NCBI GenBank assembly: GCA_014905635.1 | Contig: JABVCE010000023.1 | Coordinates: forward strand, 248,001 to 312,000 | Source: Scenedesmus sp. PABB004 | Taxonomy: Eukaryota | Reading direction: 5' to 3' | Length of the DNA stretch: 64,000 bases | Part shown: positions 44,648-50,926 of the stretch, piece by piece | Numbering within the stretch: the first letter of the stretch is position 1 | How the letters are laid out: every line of letters begins with the position of its first letter | Position numbers and translations under genes: made by a program | The notes under the pieces: generated by a model | Seen by the model: only the letters and a program-made list of their open reading frames with translations | The model's database searches: none | What the model was told of the DNA's origin: nothing

Positions 44648-47499
44648 ATGATCGGGCAGCTGCCGCGGCGGCGCGGCGGCGCCGACTGCAGCAGAAGCAG
44701 CCACGACAGCCTGGACGCCACCGCACAGTCGCTGGCGGCGCGCCTGGCCGCCGCCCAGGAGCAGCCGCGGCAGCCGCAGCCGCTGGGCACGAGCGACGCG
44801 CGCAAGGTGCTCAAGCTGCTGCGGCGGCTCGCACGGGACAAGGAGGTGCTCAGCGGGCAGGTGGAAACGCTGCTGGATTCGCAGGCCCGGCTGCTGGGGC
44901 AGCTGCAGGCGGCGCCGCCGCCCGCGCACGACGCGGCCGGCGACGACGCCGAGGCGGCGCTGCACGCGGCGCTGCAGGAGCTGCAGCGCGAGGTGGAGGA
45001 GCATGAGGAGGGCGAGGAGGAGCAGCAGCCAGGCGCGGCGGCAGCAGCACCAGCAGTGGTGGTCGATGCAGCGAGTGCGTGCGACGCTGCAGTGCGGTGC
45101 GCGGAGCAGGCGGCGGCAGAGGAGCAGGCTGCGGCGGCGGCGGAGCAGGCGCAGGCGGCGTCGGCGGCCGTGGTGGCGGACCAGGCGGTGACGATTGCTG
45201 AGCTCAAGCGCGTCATTGCGGAGCTGGAGAAACAAACCGGCCTCCTCCGCGGCCAGGCCGCGCGGGCGTCGAGCGCGGCCGCGGCCACGGCGGCGGCGCA
45301 GGCGCGCCTGGCGGAGCAGGAGGCCGAGCTCGGCGCGCTGCGGCGCGAGCAGGCCGCGTTGCAGGAGCGAGCTGAGGTGCGGCGGCGAGGGGCGCCGCGC
45401 AGTGGAGCCGCGCCTGTGCCGCGCGTGCACTGCGCTGCGCGCGTGCCGACCGCCCGCCACGCGTTCGCCCGCCTCAGGCTGCGGTGCGCGAGGCGGTGCG
45501 CGCCACGTCAGCGGCGGAGCAGGAGCGAGACGCGCTGCGCGCGGCGCTGGCCGAGGAGGCTGCGCGCCGCGCGGCGGCCGAGCGGGCGGCGGACGCGGCG
45601 CGGCAGCAGGCGGCGGGGCAGCAGGACGCTGGTGCGTGCGGGGCGGGCGCAGCGGCGCGGCGCCGCAGCGCGGGCGCGCCGACCCGCGCCTCGCCCACCC
45701 GCGGCCGCAGAGGCGTCCGAGGCGGCGCGGCTGCGCGAGGAGCGAGGCGCGCTGATGCAGAGGCTGCAGGAGGCGAACGAGGAGGTCAGCGGCCTGCATG
45801 CCGAGCTGGGCCCCGCGCTCCTCCGCGGCTCGCCCGGCCGCCGCAGCAGCGCGGTCACGCGCGGGCACAGCCTGCTGGCGGGGTCGCCAGGCCGACTCTC
45901 CGTGTGGGCGCCGCCGGCAGCCGAGCAGGGCGGCGCCGGCAGCCCGGGCGCCCGCGGCGGGGTCGCCGCGGACGGGGCCGGCGCGGCGCCGCCGCTGTCG
46001 GGCGCCGGCGCAGCCGCCGCCGCGCTGGAGGACCTGGCCGAGCTCCAGGCAGCATACCGCGAGCTGCAGCAGCAGCATGGCACGCTGCAGGCCGCACACA
46101 AGCTGCTGCAGCAGGAGGTCCACGCCCAGGCGCAGGCCGACCTGGCGGCGGACGGCGGCACCGAGGGTGGCGCGTTGGCACAGCAGGCGGCGGCGGAGCA
46201 GCAGCAGCAGCTGATGCTGGCGATGGCCGCCGACAACGCACGCCTCGCGGCGGCGCTGGCGCTGGCGCTCGCGCAGAGCGAGTCGACGGCGCAGCGCGCG
46301 CCGGGCGCAGCAGGCGGGCAGGGCGAGGAGGCGCGGCAGCAGCAGCTCCAGCTGCTGGTGAGCCAGCTGGCTGTGGCGCACGACCAGGCGGCGGGCGCGG
46401 CGGAGCTCACCGAAGCGCAGCAGCGCCGAATCGCGGCGCAGCAGGAGCAGCTGGCGGCGCTGGCGGACGAGCGCGGCGAGCTGCAGGCGGGGCACCTGTC
46501 GCAGACGCGCGCGGCAGTGGCCGCCGCGCTCGAGGCCGCGGCGCTGCCGGGTCGGCCGGCGAGGCGGCGGCCCTGGACGAGAGTTTCGGCCTGAAGCTGC
46601 GCCTCGCGCAGCAGGCAGACGCGGCGCGTCCGCGCGGCGTAGCGGCAGCGCTGGACGCAAAGGTCAGGGCGCTGCGGGGCGAGCTGGCGCGCATGGCGAC
46701 AGAGCTGGCGCAGGCGCGCGGCGCGGCGGCGGCGCCGCCGCGGGGCGGTGAGGGGCCCGCGTCGCCGGGCGCGCACTGCTCCGTGCCGCTCGTGCCTGGC
46801 GGCGGCAGTGGCGGGGCCGGCCCCAAGGTCAGCTGGTCACCGCAGGTGCGTGTGGACGCCTGCGACGCCGGCCCCGGCTCGCCCCAAGCCGCGGCGCCTG
46901 CGGCCGAGGCAGCAGCGAGCGGCAGCCGCGCGAGCTCGCCGGCCCTGGGCCAGCAGGGCGCCGGCGGCTCGCCGCGGCCGGCGGCGCCCCCGTCGCCCGG
47001 CGGCGACCGAGCTGCACTCGTTGTGGCAGTGTTGGAGAGGCAGCGCTCGAGGGCCAGCTCGCCCAGCGCCGCACTGCCGGCGCCAGCTGCCGGCGAGCAG
47101 CCGCCGCCGCCGCCGGAGGCGGAGCGCAGCGCCGGCGGCGGCAAGGCCGAGCTGCTGGCCGCGGTGCTGCAGCGGTCGCGCAGCCGCTCGACGGCGGCCA
47201 GCCCCGCGCCGCAGGACTCCGGCGGCCTGCCGCCAGGCCGGGATCGGGCGGCGCTCATCGCCGCGGTGCTTCAGCGACGGAGCCGCGCTGCCGGCAGCGG
47301 TGGTGAGATGGGGCCGAGGAGCCTCAGCGCAGAGTGTTCGGCCGGCTCCCTGGGCTCGGCGGACGGCGCCGGCGCGGCGGGCGCCCGGGGTCCGCTGAGC
47401 CCCGGCGCGGCTGCGCAGACGCAGGCCGCGGGCGGCGACCGCGCCTCTATCGTGGCCAAGGTTCTCGCCAGGCACAACCTCGCGGCGGGCGGACGCTGA
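44648..47499 (+). CDS. Coiled-coil protein of unknown function with four C-terminal D/K-R-A-x-L-x-x-x-V-L-x-R repeats
   Basis: Exons 44648-45376, 45478-45631 and 45711-47499. Heptad-like E/Q/A/L-rich segments. One -1 frame switch at about 46535-46550 is needed to reach the C-terminus. Confidence 0.65.
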
Positions 47500-47590
47500 G
47501 GTGGCGCGTTGCGGCGGGCGGTGCGGTGCGCTCGAGTGCAACGGCCCGGGCGCTTGCAACTTTGAAGCAGAGCCGCCGCGGCCGGCGCGC

Positions 47591-50500
47591 CTACTGCTGC
47601 TCGTCCTGCTCCGTCTGCTCTGGCCGCCGCTCCTGCTCCTGCTGCCGGTGTGGGCGCTCCTCCTGCTCCTGCTCCCGCTGCTGCCGCTCCTGCTGCTGCT
47701 CGCTGCTGCCTGCCGCGCTGCAGCCAGCCCCGCCCCTGGCCCTGCTGTTGCCACTGCTGCCGCCGCCGCCCTGCGCCTGTTGCGCCTGCGACCGGCCGCG
47801 CGCCTGTGCCGCCGGCGGCCGCCGCGAGAGCGCGAGCTGCGCGAGCGCCGAGCCCTCCAGGAAGCTCGACAGCTTCACCGGCGCCAGCACGCGCACCTCA
47901 CCGTCCGCGTTGTCGGCGCGGCGGAGGTGCACCTCCTGCGCCAGCACCGCGGGCGGGCCGCGCGTGAGCGGGTCGCAGATCCCGCCGCGCCTCCCAGGGC
48001 CCCTCCCCTCCCAGGCCCCGCCGCTCCGCCCGCCCGGCCGCACGCGGCCGCGCCTCGAGCCGGCCGTCGCGGTAGGCGTGACGGTAATGGCAGCTTGAGC
48101 CAAAGGGGCACACGCCGTCGCCGTGCGCAAAGTTGGCGCAGTCCTTGGCCGCCATGGCCGCCTTGTAGCGGCCCACGATGCCCTCCTTCTCGGCCGGGCT
48201 GTCGGGCCACTTGGTGCTGGGCGTGATGAAGTGCGTCGGCACGCGGCAGAGCGGGCACGTGCGCAGCGCCTGCGCGCCGACCGCGGCGCGGCGCGCGCGT
48301 GGGTGGCGGCCGCGGCGCGCGTGCGCGTGGGCGGCGGCCGCGGCGCGCGTGCGCGTGAGCGGCGGCGCGGCGCCCGGCGCCCGGCGGTCGTGGACGCGGC
48401 GCCGGCGCGGCGCGCACCGTCTTGGTGTCGGCGCCGTCGGTCGCGCGCCAGGCGCGAATGCAGCCGATGCAGAAGGGGTGGTCGCAGGCCAGCAGGCCGA
48501 AGCGCCGCGCCGAGAGCGCCGGCTTGGAGAGCACGCGCTCGAGGCAGATCGCGCACTCGATCTCGCCGTCGCGGCGGCGCTTGGCGATGCTCGCGGCGAG
48601 CGCGCCGCACGACGCCGCGTGCGCCGCCGCCGCCGCGGGCTGCGCGGGGTGCAGAAGGTGCTGCCCGCACACCTGGCGCGGCAGCGGCGGCGGGGCGGCG
48701 GAGGCGTGAGGGGGCCGGCTGCGGCTGCGGGGCAGGGGCGTCGGGCGTGTGAGTGTGAGTGTGAGTGTGAGTCAGCGGCGCAGGGGGTTGGGCGAGAGCG
48801 TTTACACGCGGAGGTGGCCGATGAGTCGCAATGCCACGGCGGGCAATACACGAATCCGTCCCCGCCGCCCGCCCGTCACCCACGCGCCGGCATCGCCCCC
48901 CCAGGCACGGCTCAGCTGCCTCAGTGCTGCGGGCGGGTCTTGCAGAGCGCTGGACGGGCATGGGCAGTGCAGTGCAGTCGGGCCGCTGCGGCAGGGGCGA
49001 GCAGGCCGCCGCCAACCGGTCGCCAAGCCCGGCCCCCCAAGCGACCCCACGCCCTTGCGTGACCGACAGCGCGCCGTGCTCACGCTGCAATCGGCAGTGC
49101 ACCCTGGGGCTCCCGGGCGGCTGCTGTCGCCGCGCCCGCCCCAAAAATGAGCCCCCCCCCCCTCCCTCCTTCCCCCTCCCTCCCTGCAGCAACAGGCGCC
49201 CATGGCAGGCCGGCGCTCGGGAGCAGCCCCGGCGGGCGGCGGCGGCGGCGACGGCGAGGGGCCTGGGAGCCCCCGTGCGCGCGTGCGCGCCGCCGCCCGC
49301 CTCCGCCGAGGGAGGGCGCAGGCGCAGCCCAGCGCACAGCGGCGCGCCGCCACGTTGGCGCGGCTATGGTACAGCCGCGCGCCCCGCCCCCGTCCGCCCT
49401 CCAGCCCGGACGCCCCCGCCCCCGGGCGTGCAGCGGCGCCGGCTGCGCCGCTGGCTCAGCTGCCGAGGCTGGCCGCTGCCAGCCGGTCCGCGATCTCGTC
49501 CGCGCCGCCGCCGCCGCCGCCCGCGCTGCCCGGCTCCGCGGCGCCGTTGGCGCCGGCCATGGCCTCCCTGCAGGCTGCCGTGTGCGTGGCTGTCCAGTCG
49601 GGGTTGTAGGGGTGGCAGCAGAAGTAGCCGCAGATCTGCAGCGGCAGCGGCAGCAGCGGCGGCGGCGGGCCCCGGCTGCTCAGGTGGCGTGTGCGGCCGC
49701 GCCGGCGCGCCCGCCGCGCTTTGCAGGCTGCCGGGGGGCCCGCCGCCGCGCTGCCGGGCGGAGCGGGGACTCGCTGCCGGCGCGGCGCTGCTGCCCAGCC
49801 CCCCTGCCCCTGCGCGGTGGCGCCCGAGCCCGAACAAGCCCCAACACGCGCAGCCCCGACCGAGGACGCCCAGTCGCAGCCCCGATCGCCCCGCCGCCGC
49901 CCGCCCGCCCGCCCGCCCGCCCGCCCGCCCGCCCGCCTGGCCCGACCGCCCGGCCCGCCCCCCGCCGGGCGCGTGCCGGCGCTTGCCGGCCGCCGCACCT
50001 CGCAGGCGTCGCCGTGGACGTAGAGGCAGTCGTCGCCGGCGCTGCAGGCGCCCGTCTCGGCGTACTCGCTGCAGAGCGGGATGTCGGCGGGGTCCATCAC
50101 CTCGCCCTCGTCGTCGCCGCCGCCGCCGCCGCCGGCGCCGGCGTCGCGCGCCGGCGGCCCCGCCTCGGCCGCGTCCTGCTCCGCCTGCCAGGCGTCAAAC
50201 TCGTCCATCTCGTCCGGCGTGAGAAAGTCGTCCCAGTTGGGCGCCGCGCCACCGCCGCCGCCAGAGCCGGAGCCCGCGCCGGGCGCGGGGCCGGCGGCGG
50301 GGCGGTGCACGCCCGGCGGCGGCACGTAGTTGCTGCGCGCGCGCGCGTGCGAGGGCGCGCGGGCGGGTGAGCCGGGCGGGCGGGCCGGGCGACGGCAGCA
50401 GTGCGCGGGGGCGCGGCGGCGGCGCGGCGGGCGGTTCCAGCGCACCTCGGCGGCGCCGGCTGCCCCCGCGAGCTCCACGACGGCTTGCTGTGCGCGTAGC

Positions 50501-50926
50501 GGCAGCGGTCGCCGTAGGCGCAGTTGCCCTGCAGGTAGAACTTGCAGACCTGCGCGGCGCGCGGCCGGCGGCAGCGCGGGCGTCGGCGGCGGCGCGCGGC
50601 GGGACGCGGGCGGCGGCGCGGCGCGCGGCGGCCCCCTCCGCCCGCGCCTGCGTGGGCTCGTCGCTGCGGTTGTGCGAGAAGCGGCAGCGGTCGCCGTAGG
50701 CGCAGGCGCCGTTCATGAAGTACTTGCAGAGCACGCTGCAGCAGCGGCGGTCGCGGCGGCGGCGGCGCGCGTGGGCGGACTGCCGCAGCGCAAACCGACG
50801 GGCTACCAGGCAAGGGTGTCACGCCGGCGCGATCCCCCGGGGCCGGGCAAGCGCGCCCGGGCGCGGGGCGGGCGGCGCGGCGGCCGCGGGGCGTGCATGC
50901 GGCCGGCCGCCGCACTTGGAGGTCAT
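47591..50926 (-). CDS. MKRN: Makorin (MKRN) CCCH zinc-finger/RING E3 ubiquitin ligase, long isoform
   Basis: MTSN|VLCKYFMNGACAYGDRCRFSH, VCKFYLQGNCAYGDRCRYAH, LCSEYAETGACSAGDDCLYVHGDACE|VCGQHLLHP...H..SC, RING CAICLE...FGLLACDHPFCIGCIRAWR...RTCPLCR, final CCCH CANFAHGDGVCPFGSSCHYRH. Stop TAG at 47591. Confidence 0.93.
48802..48806 (-). terminator. TGTAA polyadenylation signal for the short makorin isoform
   Basis: ttaca on + reads TGTAA on -. It lies downstream of the exon-A stop and upstream of the exon-B acceptor (48674-48673). Confidence 0.6.
49456..49635 (-). CDS. MKRN: Alternative terminal exon of makorin (RING-less short isoform)
   Basis: Acceptor ctgcag at 49637/49636, phase 0. Encodes ICGYFCCHPYNPDWTATHTAACREAM...LGS*, paralogous to the start of the RING-bearing exon at 48672. 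Confidence 0.75.
   Translation of the reverse strand: MCGYFCCHPYNPDWTATHTAACREAMAGANGAAEPGSAGGGGGGADEIADRLAAASLGS

Follow-up and report, generated by a model that had tools for sequence, protein, structure and literature searches.

Makorins are widespread RNA-binding E3 ligases whose ligase-independent functions are debated. The present analysis concerns a makorin gene on the minus strand of a 64,000-nucleotide (nt) window of the genome of Scenedesmus sp. PABB004 (contig JABVCE010000023.1, positions 248,001 to 312,000), a stretch with about 80% G+C throughout; coordinates below are those of the window. This single gene probably has two alternative 3' ends, which arose when the exon completing the Cys-His motif was duplicated in tandem long ago. 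Mapping the annotated protein HT031_005569 of this strain (P0004, 450 residues) back onto the window gave a seven-exon gene running from 50925 to 47591. Exon 1 (50915..50925) reads ATG ACC TCC AA, coding for MTS and leaving the codon of N one base short at a GTGCGG donor; the N-terminus of P0004 is MTSNVLCKYF, and its relatives begin MTSN, MTSS or MTSK. Exon 2 (50648..50735) encodes the first CCCH finger (Pfam zf-CCCH_4, E 5.7e-12) and ends in CAG, followed by a GC donor, GCGCGG. The second CCCH finger lies in exon 3 (50446..50549), as placed by the P0004 mapping, the sequence and Pfam matches on P0004. Exon 4 (49999..50332) encodes an acidic PNWDD..DEMDEF segment, the third CCCH finger (Pfam zf-CCCH, E 1.1e-6) and, in ..VHGDACE, the leading Cys of the Cys-His motif, and closes with the phase-0 donor GAG^GTGCGG, where ^ marks the splice site. 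The next exon of P0004, here called exon B (48418..48672), encodes Cys-His motif B and, past a linker helix, the beginning of a C3HC4 RING (Pfam zf-C3HC4, E 2.7e-6), and its 85-residue translation is 100% identical to part of P0004. The RING is completed (CPLC) in exon 6 (48054..48269), which also encodes the last CCCH finger and has a GC donor after it; exon 7 (47591..47935) encodes the makorin C-terminal stretch EVHLRRADNADGEVRVLAPVKLSSFLE, a Gln/Glu-rich tail and a TAG stop. These two exons were assigned from the P0004 mapping and from alignment A3, in which P0004 is aligned with seven other green-algal proteins, six of these full-length.

In A3 the motif order of P0004 is CCCH, CCCH, acidic PNWDD..DEMDEF, third CCCH, Cys-His, RING, last CCCH and a conserved C-terminal stretch. 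Pfam zf-CCCH matches P0004 in three stretches (E 9.3e-25), and the N-terminal C-x8-C-x5-C-x3-H fingers are present. The columns C178, C181, H187, P188, H197 and C201 of the Cys-His motif are invariant in A3, the RING (residues 219-272) scores 27 bits against a zf-C3HC4 cutoff of 21, and after the RING the columns C..CPFG.SC.Y.H and DGEVRV..P..LS.F align with the six other full-length proteins. The Pfam family MKRN1_C was not reported for the long isoform at E<=0.001. Judged by its sequence the gene is a makorin, with RNA binding and E3 ligase activity predicted.

A first-pass annotation of this DNA had proposed that the donor at 49999 faces two phase-0 acceptors, and a reading of the minus strand bore this out, with every coordinate correct. 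Exon 4 ends CTC TAC GTC CAC GGC GAC GCC TGC GAG at 49999, in phase 0, before the GTGCGG donor. Acceptor A is ...CCGCTGCAG^ATC, and the exon A that it opens (49456..49635, first base 49635) is the proximal of the two alternatives and a candidate terminal exon of 59 codons plus TGA; it begins ICGYFCCHPYNPDWTATHTAAC, continues for 37 further residues to the TGA at 49458-49456, and encodes Cys-His motif A, a Gly/Ala-rich tail and a C-terminal motif, ADEIADRLAAASLGS. Acceptor B is ...GCGCCAG^GTG, and exon B (first base 48672) begins VCGQHLLHPAQPAAAAAHAASC and reads on through RING sequence (ECAICLE...CDHPFCIGC) to its last base, 48418, next to a GTGCGC donor. The two exons are 783 nt apart, both are in phase 0, and, as had been claimed, both complete the Cys-His motif with equal spacing, C-G-x4-H-P-x8-H-x3-C in each. 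The donor splits the motif, leaving only the leading Cys of C-x2-C in exon 4 (..GDACE), and any exon joined there must therefore supply the remaining ligands. No GT dinucleotide was seen inside exon A when the sequence was read by eye, so that onward splicing through a GT donor is impossible. Acceptor A has the GCAG^ form of the gene's five constitutive acceptors; acceptor B is CCAG^. The intron between donor and acceptor A (intron 4a, 49636..49998) is 363 nt long, has 86% G+C, holds a (GGGC)n run and ends in acceptor A, CTGCAG. The run, about ten tandem GGGC units on the sense strand at about 49945-49895, lies some 55 nt downstream of the shared donor and is G-quadruplex-prone; it could influence acceptor choice. 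The NCBI gene model of P0004, a protein listed there as 'hypothetical protein', takes exon B only and leaves exon A unannotated.

The sequence data support exon A as a real, conserved coding terminal exon, neither a chance open reading frame (ORF) nor a dead copy. Its G+C at codon positions 1, 2 and 3 is 0.65, 0.70 and 0.93; the values for exon B are 0.71, 0.61 and 0.98 and those for exon 4 are 0.79, 0.61 and 0.96. The intron ahead of exon A is flat, at 0.85-0.88 across the three positions, and codon periodicity is absent after the exon A stop. A phmmer search with exon A of 1,835,955,588 representative sequences returned six matches at E<=1e-3, spanning E 1.9e-7, the best, to 5.6e-4. Five of the six were exon-A-like and carry ICGY(Y/F)C(I/V)HPY(N/S)P..; the sixth, P0020, a repeat protein covering only query residues 5-36, was dropped as unrelated. 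One of the five, P0023, is a complete protein of 316 residues, with an MTSN start, three CCCH fingers, the junction ..HGDVCK^ICGYYCIHPYNPDVTAHHQLVC, an Ala/acidic tail and the end ..ADELAEQLAETKVSS. Used as a query it gave 26 matches at E<=1e-5, and the sequences of 15 were examined; it added the complete short forms P0025, P0027 and P0029, the partial P0028 and two RING-less annotated proteins, P0030 of Monoraphidium minutum and P0031 of M. neglectum (MNEG_11227). The ORFs of P0023, P0025, P0027 and P0029 run from Met to stop, their contigs being 1530, 1474, 904 and 1019 nt long, and share the junction ..HGDxC(E/K)^(I/L)CGY(Y/F)C.HPYNPD... P0027 (295 residues) has an 888-nt coding sequence that fills its 904-nt contig with no space for introns, so a spliced molecule must carry the exon 4-exon A junction. 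In P0019, P0021 and P0022 the same exon follows unrelated sequence ending in Q, the translated CAG acceptor (..SQ in P0019); these three look as unspliced genomic ORFs would. No RING family was found by Pfam at E<=0.001 in any of the four short-form relatives scanned (P0023, P0027, P0029 and P0030), and tblastn placed the relatives on window positions 49638-49330 with E 1e-14 to 1e-17. The idea that exon A ends a RING-less makorin is thus supported by exon-A-type endings in 12 other sequences, four of them complete Met-to-stop ORFs.

Alignment A1 joined the window's exon A to these 12 sequences, which include the two Monoraphidium proteins and a chimeric one, P0026. In the 22-residue core of Cys-His motif A, identity to the window is 15-18/22 in the ten non-Monoraphidium sequences and 11/22 in the two from Monoraphidium; it is 0-4/15 in the middle tail and 5-9/15 in the 15-residue C-terminal motif. 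The window's exon A keeps all eight invariant columns of A1. In 10 of the 11 non-chimeric relatives, as in the window, the protein stops right after the C-terminal motif, P0024 being 7 residues longer. Two conserved modules around a free-running linker argue for purifying selection, unlike a decaying copy. The further suggestion that motif A is a different metal-binding motif held in part: an extra Cys stands at motif position 6 in 11 of the 13 A1 sequences, but it is in neither Monoraphidium protein, and a second extra Cys is unique to the window. When metagenome contigs were scanned with A1, none of 132 pattern matches was confirmed by tblastn. Upstream of the alternative exons, P0023, P0025, P0028, P0030 and P0031 have K(L/W)PSGA(S/D)EFG(M/L) ahead of the PNWDD motif; Gly/Ala-rich sequence stands at that place (window 50240-50300) in the window protein, P0026, P0027 and P0029. 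The peptide presumably resembles PAM2, by which MKRN1 binds poly(A)-binding protein.

A tblastn search with long and short relatives found a single makorin locus in the window and no second N-terminal exon set. Exon B has no Met and no ATG was seen between the TGTAA described below and exon B, so exons B, 6 and 7 are expressible only via donor 49999; exon A, too, is expressible only from there. Exons B, 6 and 7 are open and codon-biased, and every invariant RING and CCCH column of A3 is kept. If exon A and the RING exons are both under selection, it follows that both junctions must be used. Evidence from a second species comes from P0026, an annotated protein of Scenedesmus sp. NREL 46B-D3 encoded on a 626,841-nt contig, which has the N-terminal fingers, the A-type exon as far as ..ADKL, and then the second half of the RING (VLGKAELSARRFGLMACEHAFC..). 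Its RING matches Pfam positions 14-40 of 40 only, the first Cys pair being missing, and the fusion is probably an annotation artefact in which a predictor forced two alternative ends into one model. P0026, known from the gene model alone, implies that A-type and RING exons lie in one locus of a second species. A splice like that of P0026, from the end of exon A to the middle of exon B, was rejected for PABB004: there is no GT in exon A at that place and no AG before the matching point of exon B.

That the two exons stem from an old duplication, as had been surmised, is supported by profile comparison and by the A-type exon in Monoraphidium. With both families cut at the exon borders, hhalign aligned the exon-A family with the exon-B family over 24 Cys-His columns (probability 95%, E 3.4e-8), and when the complete profiles of the short and long forms were compared, the alignment ended three residues beyond the Cys-His motif. 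Within the window, exons A and B are identical at 9 of 22 motif residues by manual count. The A-type exons keep HPYNP; the RING-linked motif is HPYNPEE in Chlamydomonas eustigma and HPYNVEE in Edaphochlamys, and among the A-type motifs it is that of Monoraphidium that comes closest to these two (manual count). The simplest history suggested by these sequences is a tandem duplication of an ancestral Cys-His exon before the split of the Scenedesmus-like and Monoraphidium lineages, in which case a stop codon and poly(A) signal would have been later additions to the upstream copy. A derivation of the C-terminal motif of exon A from the linker helix between Cys-His and RING, considered because DRLAA is shared with an Auxenochlorella protein, was unsupported, as hhalign did not align these parts.

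The sequence between the two exons looks like the end of a transcript. In chlorophytes TGTAA is the poly(A) signal, and the earlier observation that about 650 nt of sequence resembling a 3' untranslated region (UTR), then TGTAA, precede exon B was confirmed: a TGTAA at 48802..48806, the candidate signal of the short isoform, is 649 nt beyond the stop of exon A, with a further 129 nt between it and exon B. There are seven TGTAA sites on both strands of the 64 kb, against 2.37 expected from shuffles, and the chance of one within the 783-nt gap on the right strand is about 0.01-0.04. The putative 3' UTR of the short isoform (48785..49455) was delimited by composition and lack of codon periodicity, its end point being predicted; beyond the exon A stop G+C declines from 0.85 to 0.78, and the final 66 nt ahead of the expected cleavage site have only 0.62. 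Between TGTAA and exon B is a C-rich stretch (48673..48801, C 0.57) that contains (CTCACA)4 and branch-point-like motifs, CTGAC/CTCAC, and ends in acceptor B, GCGCCAG. The (CTCACA)4 repeat, at about 48770-48745, starts some 30 nt after TGTAA, about where cleavage would fall, and also supplies branch-point-like motifs for exon B. The intron from exon 4 to exon B (49998-48673) is an outlier because, at 1326 nt, it is 7-13 times as long as the gene's other five introns, which are only 100-178 nt with 84-94% G+C; its contents look like an exon and a 3' UTR. In alternative last exons with intronic polyadenylation, a donor is shared and a proximal terminal exon with a stop and poly(A) signal lies inside an intron of the long form. 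The same layout is found here, with one donor and a proximal exon that has a stop and a candidate poly(A) signal, upstream of the distal acceptor (48673/48672). Since TGTAA is within 130 nt of the branch-point-like motifs and acceptor of exon B, competition between cleavage and splicing is a plausible prediction.

AlphaFold2 models of the two forms were shallow, built from 7 and 8 sequences with mean predicted local distance difference test (pLDDT) scores of 54 and 58. In both, the best contiguous confidence is for the third CCCH finger plus the Cys-His motif, with the same order of secondary-structure elements; the block scores 76-84 in the short form (residues 161-210) and 88-91 in the long form (residues 151-200). 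The short-form tail is below 50, its last 18 residues forming a low-confidence helix, and the RING of the long-form model is also below 50. A fold search with the long-isoform model against 48,161 PDB representatives gave no Z>=5, and the rows listed matched only the C-terminal helix 388-450, silent on the zinc modules. We infer from the models that the Cys-His motif may complete a zinc module with the third CCCH finger. A protein truncated at the exon 4 border would then be a broken module, which the duplicated exon would repair.

Some further features of the locus were noted. Two of the six introns of the annotated long model start with GC rather than GT, at 50646-50647 and 48052-48053, each within AG^GCGCGG; such donors may be frequent in this 80% G+C genome, and gene finders requiring GT would miss them. 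A convergent plus-strand gene seems to end at about 47400-47500, some 100 nt from the long-form stop (47593-47591), in which case the 3' ends would overlap; TGTAA is absent on both strands around 47400-47500. A scan of this eukaryotic locus for bacterial promoters and terminators, an irrelevant type of scan, gave nothing. Algae also have a second, shorter makorin-like family, in which P0015 and P0018 have one CCCH finger, a RING, a last CCCH finger and the C-terminal stretch, without the third finger or Cys-His; P0016 and P0017 cover the RING-to-C-terminus part only. The P0015-P0018 family could be a paralogue or a product of mis-modelled makorin loci.

In the model that we favor, use of acceptor 49635 would supply Cys-His motif A and, behind a short tail of low complexity, the conserved C-terminal motif of 15 residues with its stop, and the transcript with exon A would be cleaved after the TGTAA at 48806-48802. 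The short product, with three CCCH fingers and the Cys-His motif and no RING, is predicted to bind RNA without ligase activity. If instead exon A and its poly(A) site were skipped, 49998-48673 would be removed as one 1326-nt intron and exon 4 joined to exon B; the long product would be a canonical makorin with Cys-His motif B, C3HC4 RING, last CCCH finger and C-terminal stretch. Sharing its N-terminus, the short form may bind the same RNAs or partners without ubiquitination and in this way modulate or antagonize the ligase form, and its C-terminal helix motif could be an added contact surface.

Several observations weigh against this model. Use of either junction and of the poly(A) site in PABB004 is predicted from sequence alone, and among the sequences found no single species has both a spliced short and a spliced long form. 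The long forms of close relatives are genome annotations only, one of them the chimeric P0026. A word-index search with exon A against longer proteins gave 2218 candidates and none at E<=10, though that blank is a limit of the method, since phmmer later found relatives. Only about 3-4 of the seven TGTAA sites are in non-periodic, lower-GC, gene-end-like contexts, and no TGTAA follows the long-isoform stop. Acceptor A fits the constitutive acceptors at least as well as acceptor B does, which leaves the skipping of exon A unaccounted for. Use of both junctions in PABB004, the position of the poly(A) site, competition between the two outcomes and any regulated switch of the kind proposed in the first-pass annotation are what we infer from the layout of the locus. 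Two more points, the choice of exon B alone in the NCBI model and the tail of the window's exon A, which is the shortest of its family and ends LGS where 8 of 12 relatives have (I/V)SS, bear in addition on a rival account in which exon A is used in relatives but is unused or decaying in PABB004, where the long RING mRNA alone is made. Some relaxation of exon A in the PABB004 lineage is indeed possible from these sequences. Disuse is nevertheless unlikely, given that the frame is open, the stop comes after the C-terminal motif, where most relatives have it, and the invariant A1 columns are all kept; moreover, a neutral copy in an 80% G+C genome should lose A/T at positions 1 and 2, and exon A has 0.93 G+C at position 3 against 0.65 and 0.70. 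The GCAG form of acceptor A and the TGTAA downstream also speak against it.

The converse account, that the short protein is the only functional product and that exons B, 6 and 7 are an unexpressed ancestral relic, would explain why the spliced, transcript-like contigs of close relatives are short forms in 4 of 4 cases, why the long-form stop has no TGTAA after it and why the two Monoraphidium annotations are RING-less. We consider it very improbable, as all three exons have open frames, third-position G+C in exon B is 0.98, no invariant Cys or His has been lost from the RING or the last CCCH finger, the C-terminal stretch is kept too, and the NREL 46B-D3 model conserves this region, e.g., THFITPSTKWPD and GRLEEVHLRRA. 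Equally slim is the chance that exon A is a poison cassette, spliced between exons 4 and B via a downstream donor (e.g., CT^GTGCGC about 120 nt past the stop), with mRNA decay tuning the ligase level. Acceptor A is strong, and donor-like GTGGCG and GTGCGC occur, by eye, about 105-125 nt downstream of the exon A stop; for a poison cassette, however, a stop codon would suffice, yet conservation extends to the Cys-His core, the C-terminal motif and the stop position, and the complete short ORFs of relatives are on contigs that end soon after the stop. An assembly artefact joining two paralogous makorin genes, a caveat raised by the first-pass annotation, is scarcely credible: no point in its favor was found, an independent assembly (the 626,841-nt contig of P0026) also has A-type and RING exons in one model, the window has no second N-terminal exon set, and the contig of P0004 is 559,020 nt long.

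Taken together, and as a tentative proposal that goes beyond the two-ended gene itself and that we hold to be rather less likely than its opposite, the Sphaeropleales makorin locus may be a built-in two-protein system predating the Scenedesmus/Monoraphidium split: a RING ligase and a RING-less partner with a shared RNA-binding N-terminus, a third-finger/Cys-His module that the duplicated exon keeps intact, and an undescribed C-terminal helix motif, approximately A-D-E-L-A-D-K-L-A-E-T-x-[IV]-S-S. The short form might then account for most of the mRNA and act on the same targets as a regulator or antagonist that needs no ligase activity, and the duplication would show the Cys-His motif to be a structural part of the third CCCH finger rather than of the RING. 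To our knowledge, the Cys-His motif of makorins is without an assigned role; its retention, complete, in the absence of the RING argues that it works with the third CCCH finger. The locus is a natural experiment, in that one algal lineage, across at least two families, has retained the means of producing the RNA-binding half, its Cys-His motif complete, minus the RING. There is also a practical side. Annotation of these genes is inconsistent, with the long form only in PABB004, the short form only in Monoraphidium and a chimera in NREL 46B-D3; P0030, P0031 and P0026 are annotated 'hypothetical' or 'C3H1-type domain-containing', and none is labelled an isoform of a makorin ligase. Ortholog tables of green-algal makorins are therefore likely to be wrong.

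Among known gene architectures, the locus resembles alternative last exons combined with tandem exon duplication, in that the donor is shared and the proximal exon is a homologous copy of the distal one. Duplicated exons are usually mutually exclusive internal exons; the makorin copy, unlike these, became a terminal exon, and the choice removes the whole catalytic domain. The closest counterparts are P0030 and P0031 of Monoraphidium, which are the same RING-less short makorin with A-type Cys-His and C-terminal motif. P0026 likewise has the A-type exon with the C-terminal motif, in A-then-RING order, but is a chimera of both ends. Literature outside subscription journals yielded no account of the duplicated exon or of an algal short makorin. 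The architecture of plant and invertebrate makorins, in the available portion of PMC3022923, is three C3H fingers, Cys-His, C3HC4 RING and C3H, and the motif order of P0004 is exactly the same; the algal locus differs from the canonical gene in having a second copy of the Cys-His exon as an alternative end. The mammalian parallel drawn by the first-pass annotation, that short MKRN1 isoforms are known, is in print: as described in the accessible text of PMC9024132, MKRN1-short arises by alternative splicing and polyadenylation and lacks the last six RING residues and the C-terminal finger, most of the RING being kept. The duplicated Cys-His exon is not mentioned in the accessible parts of PMC9024132 or PMC3022923. 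As in the MKRN1-short system, one algal makorin gene would give a full E3 ligase and a C-terminally shortened form with N-terminal CCCH fingers, Cys-His and no complete RING (PMC9024132); unlike MKRN1-short as reported there, the algal short form is without any RING and has its own duplicated Cys-His exon and a conserved C-terminal motif. To the extent that the mammalian form is covered by that text, the two short forms are convergent and not inherited. The retention of the RING-less form across families argues for a selected function of its own, reached independently of MKRN1-short. In sum, as judged from the algal sequences and the accessible account of MKRN1-short, the predicted algal route is a different one to a similar end, with the whole RING removed.

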